The notes below the pieces were generated by a model. The model did no database searches and had not been told where the DNA came from. It saw only the letters and a list, made by a program, of their open reading frames with translations. A program made the translations under genes and the position numbers. From NCBI GenBank assembly GCA_965199495.1, contig CBDASK010000003.1:640001-704000 (forward strand): a stretch of DNA of 64,000 nt, in the 5' to 3' direction. This DNA is from Abditibacterium sp. Lineage in GTDB: Bacteria; Armatimonadota; Abditibacteriia; Abditibacteriales; Abditibacteriaceae. The stretch's first letter is position 1; every line of letters begins with the position of its first letter. Shown here piece by piece: positions 1-63,714 of the stretch.

Positions 1-1458
1 GCCCTGATTGATTTTGCGAATCTCGGTCAGCATATATTGCCGATTCGGGCCAACTTTCAGCATTCCGGGGTCTTTGTAGACCATGTTGGCGTCGTTGCCA
101 AAAATCACGATGCCCGCGTAATCGTTGTCGCCCAACTGGCGCGTGACCTGCGCGGCGATGCTCTTGCCCCATTCGTTGCCCTGCGCGAACTCCATCGAGT
201 GCATGATCATCGCCACGGCGCCGCCGGGAATGTATTGCATCTGCTTGATGTCCATCGTGACCGGCAGCGCCGCTTCGACCGGAGTCTGGCGATAACCGCC
301 CGGCCCGAAACTCTGATCGCCGCCGACCATCACCAGACCCGCGCCCAAATCGCGCACGTAAGATTGCAGCGAAAGCATCTGGCGTGCGGTCAGATTCCAC
401 GCTGGAACGTCGTCCAAAATAATCGCGTCGAACGGCTGCATGCCGCGCAAATCGCCCGGCAAGCCGCCCGGCCCACGCATCTCGACGTTGACTTTCTCGC
501 GCTGCAACGCCGTCAACAAATCGTTGGACAAAGTTGGATCGTTGGAAACCATCAGCACGCGCGGTTTGCCCTGAATGTTGACGAAACCCAGCGCTTTATT
601 ATTTTCGGGATTGGTATCGCCGCCCTGCACGGTTTCCAAGCGCGCCTCGAACGTGGCTGCTCCGGCCTCGGTGATGGTTTGTGGAAAGGTATAAACGCTT
701 TTTCCCTTTGGCAGCGCGACATCTTTTTGACCCAATAATTTGCCGTCGCGATACAACGAGATTTTGCCCGATGTATCCGCCGTCGCGCGCGCCACGACTT
801 TGACTTCGACCGGCTCGCCGATTTTGGCTTCGTTTGGCATCGTCAACCGTTCCAATAACGCCTCGCGCTGTTGCGGCGCCGTAAGCGGCACGACATCAAT
901 TTTCACGTCGTTGGAGGCCGCCGAAAACGCTTCTTCCAGAGCGTCGCCCAAATTTTCGTTGCCGTCGGACAAAACCACCAAACGCTTCTGCATCCCGTCC
1001 GGCAACGAAGCCATTCCGAGCCGAATCGCGGCGGCGATGTCGGTGAACTGCGTCGAAGTGACGGTCTGAATTTTGTCGATGTCGCGGCCCGTTGAGGGCG
1101 CCAATTCGATATAGGCGTCGCGCCCGAAAACCACGATGCCCGCGCGGTCGTTCGGCTTTTTGTCGGCGACGGCTTTTTGCACGTATTCCAGCTCGCGCAC
1201 TTTGGCTTCGGGCGAAATCGAATCGGAATAATCCAGCACGAACATCGTCGCCACGTCGCGGTTGAACTTGACGATTTGCAATCCTGCCAACGCCAGAATG
1301 ATCAGTCCGGTGAGCAAAAGCCGAATGCCCGTCGCCAAAGCGCGCCGCGCGGGCGACAAATCGGTGAGCGAGCGCCGCGCCAGCCAAACGAAATAAATCG
1401 CGAGCGGCGGAAAGAGCGCCAAGGCCCAGGGATTGGTGAAAGAAAGACCGAACGGCAT
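1..1458 (-). CDS. VWA-domain membrane protein with glutamine-amidotransferase-like (DUF1355-type) region; partial, runs off window start
   Basis: Absent from the ORF track because it has no stop in the window. Hand translation from ATG 1458 gives MPFGLSFTNPWALALFPP..., MIDAS-like LDYSDS, TDIAAAI, VVLSDGNEN, GAGLVMVGGDQSFGPGGY. Confidence 0.8.
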   Translation of the reverse strand, partial: MPFGLSFTNPWALALFPPLAIYFVWLARRSLTDLSPARRALATGIRLLLTGLIILALAGLQIVKFNRDVATMFVLDYSDSISPEAKVRELEYVQKAVADKKPNDRAGIVVFGRDAYIELAPSTGRDIDKIQTVTSTQFTDIAAAIRLGMASLPDGMQKRLVVLSDGNENLGDALEEAFSAASNDVKIDVVPLTAPQQREALLERLTMPNEAKIGEPVEVKVVARATADTSGKISLYRDGKLLGQKDVALPKGKSVYTFPQTITEAGAATFEARLETVQGGDTNPENNKALGFVNIQGKPRVLMVSNDPTLSNDLLTALQREKVNVEMRGPGGLPGDLRGMQPFDAIILDDVPAWNLTARQMLSLQSYVRDLGAGLVMVGGDQSFGPGGYRQTPVEAALPVTMDIKQMQYIPGGAVAMIMHSMEFAQGNEWGKSIAAQVTRQLGDNDYAGIVIFGNDANMVYKDPGMLKVGPNRQYMLTEIRKINQG

Positions 1459-1521
1459 AAACGGCAACGAAACCGGTCAGAGTTTACCGTGTGCCGTCGC
1501 AAAATTTGTAATTCGCGGGAT

Positions 1522-2427
1522 TTAGCGCGGCCATTTCCACAATTCGCCGTTTTCGCGCGCTTCGTAAATCGCGCTTTGGTCGGGCGATACTGCCAAGACG
1601 TGATTTCGCGGGCCGGAGAAGCGCCATTTTACCTGGCCGGTGCGAAGGTCGCGGGCGATGACTACGCCGTTCTCCATTGATAGAACGATAAGCCCATCGC
1701 TTGACATTGTAAATCTCAACTCTCCTTCGAGCGGCATTTGCCATAGCAACTTCTCGCTTTGTAAGTCGAAAAATTGAACGGTAGTAATCCCATATTTCTG
1801 ATCCAATTGAAAGCTATAAATAGTTTTGTTGTCGGTGCAAAGCCGAACATTTTTAAAAGTGCCTCGCTTTCTATCGGAGCCTACAACTTGCAGAGTCATG
1901 AAATTGAGAAGCCAAGCTTTGGCGCGCGATCTCAGCAAGATTTTTTTGCGGTCTAAAGCAATACCATAAAAGTCTTCAACGACGTAATTTGAAATAACGA
2001 ACTGTTGATTTATCACGCCGGAGCGCGCATCGCGCGATAAGAGAGCTTGGCAGTCTTGGCTCCGCTCACCAGAAGGCGTCGGACTACAAAAACTCACCTG
2101 ATAGAAGTAGCGGCTATCGGCGGAAAAGAGTACATTATATTGAAAATCCACATTATCCGTGTCAGGCATCTGGGACACAGAACCAGTGGTCAGGTCAACA
2201 ATCTCACCGAAGTCCTCACCGATGTAACGCACGAATATCCGTTTGCCATCGGGCGAAATGAATAGATCGGTCGCGTGAATTGCTCTTGATGGGAAGACGC
2301 TTATCCCAGACACGCTCGATGTGAGGTGCGCCACCAATCGCGGGCGATTGTCCGCCAACCGCCCGGCGACGATCAAACCGGCGACCAACGGCAGCACGGC
2401 CAACGCCCAAATCCATTTGCGTTTCAT
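1522..2427 (-). CDS. Membrane-anchored beta-propeller (WD40/PQQ-like) protein
   Basis: N-terminal hydrophobic anchor; repeated SPDGK/SADS/SSDG blades; DLRTGQVKW motif. Confidence 0.65.
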   Translation of the reverse strand: MKRKWIWALAVLPLVAGLIVAGRLADNRPRLVAHLTSSVSGISVFPSRAIHATDLFISPDGKRIFVRYIGEDFGEIVDLTTGSVSQMPDTDNVDFQYNVLFSADSRYFYQVSFCSPTPSGERSQDCQALLSRDARSGVINQQFVISNYVVEDFYGIALDRKKILLRSRAKAWLLNFMTLQVVGSDRKRGTFKNVRLCTDNKTIYSFQLDQKYGITTVQFFDLQSEKLLWQMPLEGELRFTMSSDGLIVLSMENGVVIARDLRTGQVKWRFSGPRNHVLAVSPDQSAIYEARENGELWKWPR

Positions 2428-62381: not shown

Positions 62382-62703
62382 AACCAAATCGCATCGCGAG
62401 CGATTGCGGCAAACTTTTGGGGTTATGAAAATAGTTTTAACCACCGTCGAAGCCGATTTGGTTTCTGCCTGACGTAAATTCCCCGCGACGTGGCTGGTGT
62501 CGGGGTCGGCAGTGTGCGCATAGCGATTGACGACGTTTTGCTGCAAAAGCGCGAATTTCCACGAACGTGGGCGCAGGCGCAAAGTCGGCATCAACAGCTT
62601 TATAACCGATAACGAGCGCGTTTCGTAGAAAGGACGATTTACGGACTGGCGTCTTAAACGTCGGATTTGCGTCGGTTGGAATAAGCCGCGACTTCACGGG
62701 CGT

Positions 62704-63714
62704 TCATGGCAGACGCCATAGCTGCAGTTTGTGGCTCTCGCCGCCAAACGCCAATAATTGACCATCGGGAGAAAAGGCGACTGCCAAAGTCGCTCTTTCT
62801 TCCTTGGGCAAGCTGAAGCGCAGCTTGCCGCTTTCCAAATCCCAGATTTCCACCGGATAATTCGGAGTCGCGTTGGCCAACAGTTTCTCATCGGGCGAAA
62901 TCGCGATAGTCCAGGCGCCGAGAATCGCGCCCTCGAAACTCTTTTGCAGCGTGCCCGTTGCCGTTTCCCAAACCGAAATCGCGTCGTTTTGCCGCGCGCC
63001 CGCTATCCGCTTGCCGCCATCGAAAAACGCCAGCGACCTAACCACGCTGCCCAGATGCGTTATGCGCGTTTTGAGTGCGCCCGTCACCACGTCCCACGTC
63101 CTAATTTCTTGCGATCCGCCGCTCGCGATGGTTTTCCCATCGGGCGCGAACGCCAGCGACCAGACCTGATTGCCATCCCACGTCATCGTTTTCAAGAGTT
63201 CGCCCGTCATCACATCCCAAATTCGCACTTCGCCAAAGAGGGTGTTTTCACCTTCCGCGTTGCTCAGTGCGATGCTTCTGCCGCCGCCCGTCGCCAACAA
63301 CCGACCGTCCGGCGAAAATGCGAGCGAAGTTAGCGCGCTCGATGCGGTCGTCAGCGTGCGCCGCAGCGCGCCCGACGCGACATCCCAGATCAAAGTATTT
63401 TCGCTCAACCCGGCGTCGTTCACGCAAGCCACGAGCTTCCCATCGGGAGAAAACACGGCGGGGCCGCCGATGTCCTGCTTTGCCTCCAAAGCGGGGCGCG
63501 GTTCACCCGAAGCGACATCCCATAATGCCAGCCCGCCGAGGCCCGCAACCGCAACCGTTTTTCCGTCGGGCGCAAAAGCAAGCGAACTGAAGCTCCAATG
63601 CACATCAATACTCGAAACCAATTGAGGCGCGGCGAGTGGGGGCGTTTCGGGCGCGGCCAAGCCCCGAAACGCATGGAAACACAAAAAGCCGAGCAGACAA
63701 CAGAAATTCTTCAT
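62704..63714 (-). CDS. Secreted WD40-repeat protein
   Basis: About seven SLAFSPDG...WD repeats after a signal peptide. Confidence 0.92.
   Translation of the reverse strand: MKNFCCLLGFLCFHAFRGLAAPETPPLAAPQLVSSIDVHWSFSSLAFAPDGKTVAVAGLGGLALWDVASGEPRPALEAKQDIGGPAVFSPDGKLVACVNDAGLSENTLIWDVASGALRRTLTTASSALTSLAFSPDGRLLATGGGRSIALSNAEGENTLFGEVRIWDVMTGELLKTMTWDGNQVWSLAFAPDGKTIASGGSQEIRTWDVVTGALKTRITHLGSVVRSLAFFDGGKRIAGARQNDAISVWETATGTLQKSFEGAILGAWTIAISPDEKLLANATPNYPVEIWDLESGKLRFSLPKEERATLAVAFSPDGQLLAFGGESHKLQLWRLP

Follow-up and report, generated by a model that had tools for sequence, protein, structure and literature searches.

The stretch of DNA analysed here, the window, comprises 64,000 nucleotides of the chromosome of an Abditibacterium sp. 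(C3:640001-704000), along which a short DNA word, CGVCGTGGCTG, recurs. The genome, G000 in our numbering, is 95% complete and has three contigs: C3 is the 4.72 Mb chromosome, and C1 and C2 are small replicons of 24.7 kb and 64.6 kb. We took gene identities in the window from Pfam profiles, which upheld those proposed in an earlier note on this DNA, namely a class I/II aminotransferase, DAHP synthase, prephenate dehydrogenase, EPSP synthase, a pyrimidine-nucleoside phosphorylase and a PfkB kinase. No Rfam family matched within the window. The same note had picked out the 11-mer GCCGTGGCTGC, dispersed through these genes, as a candidate DNA uptake signal.

On recheck, all 13 positions and strands listed for this 11-mer were exact; 0.08 copies would be expected, and none of 100 dinucleotide shuffles of the window reached 13. 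The four exact copies of the longer 16-mer CGCCGTGGCTGCATCG also lie where they had been placed, at 3815 (+), 16966 (-), 29004 (+) and 37255 (+), the first of them between genes as claimed (open reading frames (ORFs) 3192-3776 (-) and 3869-4393 (+)), and the window holds five further copies at two mismatches. The 7-mer core, put at more than 50 copies, was counted 62 times (34 + 28).

A sharply defined word across the chromosome

With respect to the word, a signature specific to its lineage and spread over the whole chromosome, the window is an unremarkable sample. We counted 731 copies of GCCGTGGCTGC on the chromosome (371 plus, 360 minus) and none on C1 and C2. From the sequence logo and the single-mismatch spectrum, the full word was defined as CGVCGTGGCTG, mostly followed by C, which has 2,112 chromosomal copies (1,045 plus, 1,067 minus); its 8-nt core, CGTGGCTG, occurs 3,083 times in G000. 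The most frequent 12-mer of the genome is CGCCGTGGCTGC (690 copies), and the most frequent 10-mer is CGCCGTGGCT (1,374 copies). The third position of the word can be C (690), G (357) or A (276) and is rarely T (27), while the other single changes at positions 1-2 and 4-10 are found in 0-26 copies each, versus 690 for the exact word. The flanks of the 77 copies of the 16-mer are unique. Thus, the word is not part of a longer repeat, and a hidden one behind it was ruled out.

Frame, peptide and coding counts were based on 3,698 genes (86% coding) called with our own crude codon-model ORF picker. When synonymous codons were shuffled inside each gene (20 rounds), about 8 copies of the 12-mer were expected in coding sequence (CDS) and 628 were observed. 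The 8-mer core was found 2,852 times in CDS versus about 270, and the 7-mer 4,161 times versus about 753. The enrichment therefore persists under the codon-shuffled null that had been suggested for it. A force on the DNA sequence, not on protein, writes and maintains the word.

Within G000, 91% of the copies lie in coding sequence. The spread over different frames described earlier was found in part: copies do occur in several frames and between genes, but unevenly, with 573 of the 731 11-mers (78%) in two of the six frames, read as GCC GTG GCT GC (283) or GCA GCC ACG GC (290). The remainder comprises 94 copies in the other four frames, 62 intergenic ones and 2 at gene edges. No positional bias within genes was seen for sense versus antisense copies. 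The word has also marked the proteome. The peptide AVAA occurs 388 times versus 135 expected from composition (2.9-fold), the exact word encoding 283 of these, and AATA 369 times versus 108 (3.4-fold); permuted tetrapeptides, our control, gave observed/expected ratios of 0.67-1.29. In an earlier study, the tripeptides encoded by the DNA uptake sequence (DUS) of Neisseriaceae and the uptake signal sequence (USS) of Pasteurellaceae are reported at about double frequency (Findlay and Redfield, PMC2817400). The word might be a by-product of codon usage and alanine-rich peptides, as 78% of the copies fall in two frames encoding A-V-A-A or A-A-T-A/G. We count this explanation as refuted: against it stand the excess over synonymous shuffling, the use of one exact codon string in 283 of the 388 AVAA peptides, the 62 intergenic copies, and the 0-5 copies of the word in congeners of similar composition.

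The two orientations are balanced along the chromosome. Between the weak GC-skew extremes, one arc holds 354 plus and 366 minus copies, and the rest of the chromosome 691 and 701; the cumulative count of plus minus minus copies stays between -39 and +4 across the 2,112 sites. CGVCGTGGCTG is absent from C1 (11 expected at chromosomal density) and occurs once on C2 (29 expected). The longest word-free gaps, at about 415-453, 1,119-1,226, 2,258-2,278, 2,764-2,780 and 4,229-4,268 kb, are mostly low in G+C, the last being the exception. The replichore-strand check and the search for depletion in recently acquired DNA, both proposed in the earlier note, thus returned no polarity and a near-absence from the small contigs, with gaps mostly in low-G+C stretches. 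Together with the codon null, the both-strand and arc counts bear out its description of a genome-wide signal at the DNA level that is non-palindromic, strand-symmetric and non-polar.

Other repeated sequences were recorded in passing. A second, unrelated word, CCGTAGAGACACCGAC, occurs 11-19 times per 400 kb in G000:C3:600001-1000000, and the congener G012 has yet another, TCATGTTACGCAG (13 per 400 kb). A 43-nt repeat forms inverted pairs about 150 bp apart at G000:C3 51566/51714, 2751402/2751569, 2880372/2880521 and 4617440/4617589, and recurs in a related public record (L071). The commonest 8-mers of the G000 chromosome are GCGCGCGC and CGCGCGCG (about 7,500 each, both strands; the genome has 55.7% G+C). 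Their counts are close to the high-order Markov expectation and thus reflect an unusual CpG-rich genomic background.

Origin in place and dialects among relatives

We compared 41 genomes for CGCCGTGGCTGC, drawn from the organism itself and its genus, family, order, class and phylum, with 27 genomes representing the family. Word searches and pair statistics in relatives used samples of 243-400 kb, and word status was established for 8 of the 27 family genomes. Only G000 (690 copies), G011 (510) and G004 (154) are rich in the 12-mer, the rest having at most 16, within the range of the reversed control. Of the 27 family genomes, only these three carry the core; they are the word-bearing members of the genus and, belonging to a single clade, were counted as one event. 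No comparable iterated word was seen in the congeners G006 (243 kb) and G012 (400 kb), and no iterated word in G016, from a third genus (257 kb). A GTDB-wide scan with the 16-mer gave, among the at least 116 records listed, mostly single chance matches. Only two of the records listed had three each; they are labelled Abditibacteriales and Abditibacterium sp., and one locus is 96% identical to G000. In the literature, a search with the core sequence gave unrelated primer matches only, and none of the papers listed named the taxon in connection with uptake, competence, palindromes or transformation.

At orthologous sites, word-less relatives use other codons and often another residue. For example, one site reads GCC GCC GTG GCT GCT in G000, and GCG GCG ATT GCG GCG or GCC GCC ATC GCC GCG in relatives (A-A-I-A-A). 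In the alignment with G012 (104 kb, 70.4% identity), 2 of 68 G000 core sites are common, and G012 holds 7 sites there; with G004 (252 kb, 79.9% identity), 47 of 187 are common. G011, at 84.8% identity and with the same dialect, kept 103 of 160 core sites (64%) versus 36% for other 8-mers. In contrast, G004, which uses another dialect, kept 47 of 178 (26%) versus 27%. Orthologue comparisons and retention rates together show that the word was written in place by substitution and is retained only between genomes that use the same dialect. The orthologue alignment proposed earlier has thus been made, and the word arose at orthologous positions by substitutions without indels.

G000 and G011 share the dialect CGVCGTGGCTGC and have the same logo. 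The main dialect of G004 is (TA)GGACGTGGCTGGTGTC, built on the same core; GACGTGGCTGGTG has 1,443 copies in G004, compared with 16 in G000, 13 in G011 and no more than 2 in any of the remaining 24 genomes of the family. Of the core sites in G004, about one third belong to perfect hairpins, about 55 nt long, that carry the word in both arms; tandem arrays occur too. In another genus of the family, G017 carries 2,412 copies of AGTACGGTCGA (pattern AGTAC-GG-TCGA), versus at most 5 in each other of the 27 genomes. In its 400-kb sample, 59% of these copies are in tail-to-tail pairs and 66% of the copies of their core, GTACGGTCGA, are intergenic. G020, of the same genus as G017, has a 12-nt palindrome, TCGAGTACTCGA (pattern AGTAC-TCGA; about 287 sites per 400 kb), which equals two overlapped half-sites AGTACTCGA, that is, the G017 word minus GG. 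The GCCGT start common to our word and DUS is a coincidence, as the earlier note had allowed, because the dialects have CGTGGCTG as their conserved core, and the one in G004 starts GGACGT.

A separate observation concerns one of the G004 arrays. At G004:C8:154520-154570 (L156), three tandem 18-nt units, each with the G004 dialect word, lie inside an open frame just upstream of a region syntenic with about 14.3 kb of the window.

Exclusion between copies of the same orientation

The new result of this work is an orientation-specific exclusion between copies of the word. When two neighbouring copies are less than about 1 kb apart, they mostly point in opposite directions. For pairs of 11-mers in the same orientation, the observed/expected ratio is 0.04-0.08 below 100 bp, 0.13 at 100-300 bp, 0.25 at 300-500 bp, 0.45 at 500-750 bp, 0.68 at 750-1,000 bp, 0.79 at 1,000-1,500 bp and 0.96 at 1,500-2,000 bp. 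For pairs in opposite orientation, it is about 1.0 at all distances, except for a 2.4-3.9-fold excess below 25 bp, where the copies are inverted back to back. Under 500 bp, we found 39 same-orientation 11-mer pairs versus 236 expected, and 222 opposite pairs (25-500 bp) versus 224. Among adjacent pairs of G000 closer than 500 bp, 125 are in the same and 509 in opposite orientation (binomial p = 7e-56). The pattern holds inside genes (152 same versus 477 opposite) and between them (123 versus 223), and G011 replicates it (15 versus 48 below 750 bp). Five other abundant 8-mers, used as controls, showed mild clustering and no exclusion. As 53 of the 67 tight inverted pairs of G000 lie inside CDS, these pairs are not terminators.

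Both orientations can also sit at one place, as in the back-to-back pairs of G000, the hairpins of G004, the tail-to-tail pairs of G017 and the overlapped palindrome of G020. Where they sit together, exclusion hits all neighbours, over a range of about 750 bp in G017, 500 bp in G020 and 1 kb in G004.

Genuine DUS served as a control, in four genomes with 1,863-3,841 copies of GCCGTCTGAA from a 400-genome sample of the order holding a Pandoraea record. Pairs were counted by pattern in two windows of start-to-start distance. At 110-140 bp, there were 165 same-orientation, 91 convergent and 87 divergent pairs (178 opposite), a same/opposite ratio of 0.93. At 310-340 bp, there were 161 same-orientation and 73 convergent pairs, a ratio of about 1.10, the divergent class having been counted only at the shorter distance. 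Some of these pairs stem from tandem repeats and neighbouring hairpin pairs. Expected DUS counts would rest on rounded genome sizes, and we therefore used same/opposite ratios instead. The ratio in G000 at comparable distances is 0.16-0.33. No USS-rich genome was found among the 400 genomes of the sample, which is also that of the Burkholderiales-order search. As an aside, G444 (the genome of L043), labelled 'uncultured Enterobacteriaceae bacterium', drew the same 400-genome sample as the Pandoraea genome, so that its label or its placement is off.

Table 1 Sites of the word in the window. Full words (CGVCGTGGCTG) and sites with the core CGTGGCTG only were mapped; sense and antisense are relative to the ORF.
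Site	Position	Strand	Context
Full word CGCCGTGGCTG	3815..3825	+	Intergenic
Full word CGGCGTGGCTG	7824..7834	+	
Full word CGACGTGGCTG	8736..8746	+	
Full word CGCCGTGGCTG	10702..10712	+	Sense in MobA-like nucleoside triphosphate transferase ORF 10445-11023
Full word CGCCGTGGCTG	13503..13513	+	Sense in ORF 12526-14280
Full word CGCCGTGGCTG	15213..15223	+	Sense in aminotransferase ORF; motif-less relatives encode A-A-I-A-A with other codons
Full word CGCCGTGGCTG	16552..16562	+	Sense in DAHP synthase ORF; common to G004; Ile codon in G006, G003
Full word CGCCGTGGCTG	16971..16981	-	Antisense in prephenate dehydrogenase ORF
Full word CGGCGTGGCTG	19284..19294	+	Sense in ORF 17722-19662
Full word CGGCGTGGCTG	21648..21658	-	
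Full word CGACGTGGCTG	22847..22857	-	Sense in ORF 22395-24254(-)
Full word CGACGTGGCTG	25475..25485	-	Antisense in DUF1559 pilin-like ORF 25090-25860
Full word CGCCGTGGCTG	27134..27144	-	Antisense in EPSP synthase ORF; core kept in G011, absent in G004, G003
Full word CGCCGTGGCTG	29004..29014	+	Antisense in pyrimidine-nucleoside phosphorylase ORF; G011 has word at same place, opposite orientation
Full word CGCCGTGGCTG	30093..30103	-	Between ORFs
Full word CGACGTGGCTG	31162..31172	+	Sense in ORF 30251-31444
Full word CGCCGTGGCTG	32788..32798	-	Antisense in ORF 31512-32975
Full word CGGCGTGGCTG	34800..34810	-	Sense in ORF 34623-35864(-)
Full word CGCCGTGGCTG	37255..37265	+	Antisense in PfkB kinase ORF
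Full word CGCCGTGGCTG	43137..43147	+	Antisense in ORF 42204-45329(-)
Full word CGGCGTGGCTG	44705..44715	-	Sense in ORF 42204-45329(-)
Full word CGCCGTGGCTG	49855..49865	+	Antisense in ORF 48358-51252(-)
Full word CGCCGTGGCTG	49998..50008	-	Sense in ORF 48358-51252(-); 143 bp from opposite-orientation copy
Full word CGCCGTGGCTG	51154..51164	+	Antisense in ORF 48358-51252(-)
Full word CGACGTGGCTG	54519..54529	+	Antisense in ORF 52666-54633(-)
Full word CGACGTGGCTG	62486..62496	+	
Core only	652..659	+	
Core only	10603..10610	-	Within earlier note's 11-mer at 10602; flank GG instead of CG
Core only	14378..14385	-	Kept in G011, G004
Core only	17637..17644	-	Absent in G011, G004
Core only	21499..21506	+	
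Core only	29361..29368	+	G011 has CGTCGCCG here
Core only	36777..36784	-	
Core only	40993..41000	-	
Core only	42491..42498	-	
Core only	49089..49096	-	
Core only	54393..54400	-	
Core only	55508..55515	-	
Core only	57381..57388	+	
Core only	57894..57901	-	
Core only	60148..60155	-	
Core only	60836..60843	-	

The window also contains repeats at about 80% identity, which we rejected as copies of the word: they are segments of paralogous pilin-like and histidine-kinase genes plus one palindromic element. The element (28413-28566; intergenic, about 155 nt, arms starting CCCTCACCCTAACCCTCTCCCGGAGGGAGAAGG) is possibly MITE-like (miniature inverted-repeat transposable element) or structured; with about 80% identity, it matches dozens of sites in G004 and G011, on either strand. 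The pilin-like gene (25090-25860) encodes an N-terminal methylation motif and a DUF1559 domain. Each of the five congeners searched has paralogues, dozens in all, that match its first ~175 nt, so that a lineage bearing iterated DNA words also has a pilin-like family of very large size.

Candidate readers and explanations of the word

If the word acts in DNA exchange, a protein should read it. G000 carries ComEC, DprA, a ComEA-type HHH protein and eight secretin matches, and the genus holds dozens of pilin-like DUF1559/N-methyl paralogues. The competence-gene search suggested earlier therefore succeeded as far as the genes are concerned and named no reader. ComEC was rejected as a correlate of words, being present in all 27 family genomes, including G006, G012 and G016, whose samples of 243-400 kb gave no iterated word. 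Its frames are mostly about 850-900 aa in the other family genomes, shorter ones occurring in fragmented assemblies. The ComEC match is shortened in G012 (558-aa frame, G012:C1:1341240-1341905) and split over two frames in G023 (G023:C8:739589-740301), which may reflect a decay of competence in some word-less lineages.

Four further candidates were rejected. A 1,421-aa protein (G000:C3:4111365-4115630 (-)) combines an N-terminal PD-(D/E)XK nuclease with a C-terminal Upf1-like superfamily 1 (SF1) helicase; within the genus it is found only in the three word-bearing genomes, and it also occurs in G017, yet it is present in word-less G016 and absent from word-bearing G020. The RAYT transposase (REP-associated tyrosine transposase; Y1_Tnp) is in 25 of the 27 genomes yet absent from G017, which has the densest word of five. 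ORFs for small, Ssn-like GIY-YIG nucleases occur in word-less G006 and G016 and in neither G017 nor G011. Vsr is above the cut-off in only 3 of the 27 genomes, namely G017, G004 and word-less G016, G000 having a sub-threshold fragment and G011 and G020 none. The gene of the 1,421-aa protein adjoins a bacterial topoisomerase IB gene; it has a patchy distribution in the family, with 5 of the 27 genomes carrying it, and seems to be broken in G011, where it has an in-frame TGA and its front part was not found.

We hypothesize that the word is a self-recognition signal spread by a recombination-linked drive, most likely in natural transformation, and read on one strand, a reading to which we give a little less than an even chance. 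The orientation-specific exclusion implies that two copies are redundant only on the same strand. Such redundancy would be expected of a directional motor or of a protein that reads single-stranded DNA, and not of an orientation-blind duplex receptor. In our model, the word would bias homologous recombination of incoming DNA towards same-species DNA, most likely during natural transformation, and the resulting molecular drive would accumulate the word, as for DUS and USS and as is now proposed for HIP1, the iterated palindrome of cyanobacteria. The limiting recognition would read one strand, either as single-stranded DNA after entry or via a directional motor. Each strand would then need its own copy about every kb, and a second same-strand copy nearby would gain nothing. 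We infer the transformation link, the single-strand reading and the drive as the accumulating force.

Several points weigh against this hypothesis. Genuine DUS, the closest model system, lacks orientation-specific exclusion (165 same versus 178 opposite pairs at 110-140 bp), and the single-strand reading derives from spacing statistics. The universal occurrence of ComEC, word-less genomes included, means that competence genes do not discriminate; no reader protein was identified, and the five tested gene families do not track word presence. Finally, the frame and peptide counts depend on a crude ORF model.

A classical uptake signal, bound as duplex by a surface receptor such as a minor pilin regardless of orientation and accumulated through biased uptake, seems to us quite unlikely, although it shares all the DUS-like statistics (codon null, sharpness, dialects, gaps, peptides, retention) and the genus has its dozens of pilin-like paralogues and G000 its eight secretin matches. 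Like our word, DUS and USS are non-palindromic, 9-12 nt long, present in thousands of copies equally on both strands and free of replichore bias. They lie mostly or partly in genes in permissive frames, with the encoded peptides raised (PMC2817400), are absent from recently acquired DNA, form inverted pairs and have dialects with a common core (PMC3630211, PMC1939737). What speaks against this explanation is orientation. An orientation-blind receptor predicts interference in either orientation, and uptake in H. influenzae is reported to be independent of it (Bakkali, PMC1939737); in G000, a copy keeps others of its own orientation at bay for about 1 kb and opposite ones are independent, whereas real DUS show no such asymmetry. 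The G000 word thus departs from DUS and USS in its orientation-dependent spacing, in its tight inverted pairs, which are in genes and not at terminators, and in its Abditibacteriales lineage. The earlier note's reading as a DUS/USS-like uptake signal is accordingly supported in part: dialects, origin in place, proteome imprint, scarcity in foreign DNA and competence genes agree with it, and the same-orientation-only exclusion argues against it in its simple, orientation-blind form. Its alternative, a site for a nucleoid or chromosome-structuring protein on duplex DNA, we consider very unlikely. The word is spaced more evenly than chance, and HIP1 periodicity has been interpreted in this way (PMC5861425), but a duplex binder would occupy either orientation equally, so that exclusion should ignore orientation, and species of a single genus would each need a different architectural code.

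Orientation-specific redundancy would also follow if a helicase-nuclease resecting linear DNA, broken or incoming, read the word on the unwound strand and switched to RecA loading, each orientation guarding one side of a break. This is how Chi sites work: over-represented words of 5-8 nt, in modest excess, read directionally on one strand by RecBCD or AddAB. Like Chi, our word marks the organism's own DNA by its over-representation and is rare in foreign DNA, and the 1,421-aa nuclease-helicase is, within the genus, confined to word-bearing genomes. We nevertheless judge this explanation unlikely. RecC (PF04257) has no match in the G000 genome, and no RecB/AddA/AdnAB-type protein was found there, PDDEXK_1 (PF12705) matching only a 299-aa protein and the 1,421-aa one, which fails as a correlate. 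Moreover, the word has no leading-strand skew, and its 11 fixed or near-fixed positions and ~80-fold enrichment lie far outside known Chi sites. Quite improbable, in our view, is a link to methylation or repair, in which the word would be a HIP1-like methyltransferase target regenerated by biased mismatch repair, or a strand-specific nick site needed once per strand within excision range. A nick on the word-bearing strand would explain the independent ~1 kb spacing on each strand, and the G020 word is a true iterated palindrome like HIP1 (GCGATCGC), which two methylases bind (PMC13756078). However, with eleven fully specified positions and no spacer, the word does not resemble known methyltransferase sites, a bias at a single methylated base could not hold all 10 fixed positions sharp, Vsr does not track words, and HIP1 itself is argued to be kept by selection and not by biased repair (Xu et al., PMC5861425). 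HIP1 is described as 15- to 300-fold enriched and non-randomly spaced, its sites are conserved across species, and it has been proposed to be linked to transformation (PMC5861425, PMC13756078), which it is reported to raise in a homology- and methylation-dependent manner (10.1101/2024.09.10.611283, PMC13756078). The G000 word differs in being asymmetric and longer, and in a spacing that takes the form of a 0.4-1 kb exclusion and not of a 10-90 kb periodicity. The least probable of the explanations still standing, and in our view scarcely credible, is that of mobile repeats, either repetitive extragenic palindromic (REP) sequences and their paired form, REPINs, moved by RAYT, or Ssn-related hairpins cut by a small GIY-YIG nuclease. 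The 55-nt perfect hairpins of G004 and the 24-nt palindromes of G017 are REPIN-like, with 43% and 66% of copies intergenic, and Ssn nucleases are reported to read genome-wide hairpin repeats (Ssn-related motifs; NTS/dRS3, SsnA) as single strands and to modulate transformation (PMC11893778). Those motifs, however, are ~30-bp hairpins clustered around certain genes and flanking ssnA (PMC11893778), while the G000 word is a bare 11-mer without a hairpin, 91% in CDS, with unique flanks and an origin by substitution without indels; neither Y1_Tnp, missing from G017, nor the small GIY-YIG nucleases track the words.

Returning to the self-recognition signal read on one strand, a wider version of it is possible, though we hold it with clearly more doubt. 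The family labelled Abditibacteriales might use a species-specific code of 9-16 nt words read on single-stranded DNA, a transformation-stage counterpart of Chi that would license the incoming strand for recombination. The demand for one copy per strand per ~kb would be met in different ways: as singles on both strands, back-to-back pairs, hairpin pairs or an overlapped palindrome.

For only two bacterial families, to our knowledge, has sequence-specific self-recognition during DNA exchange been firmly established; HIP1 is a debated third case. The word described here adds a deep-branching and barely studied lineage whose close species carry different words, a natural experiment on how self-recognition codes arise, diverge and isolate gene pools. 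Orientation-specific exclusion provides a simple, computable signature that separates one-strand readers from duplex readers and can be applied to any iterated word. If our hypothesis is true, the reader would be a protein recognising single-stranded DNA; in the wider version, the code of words would amount to a self/non-self barrier to gene flow of a new kind, one that differs from duplex-binding ComP/DUS. The right word on the right strand could then make uncultured or hard-to-engineer Abditibacteriales transformable.

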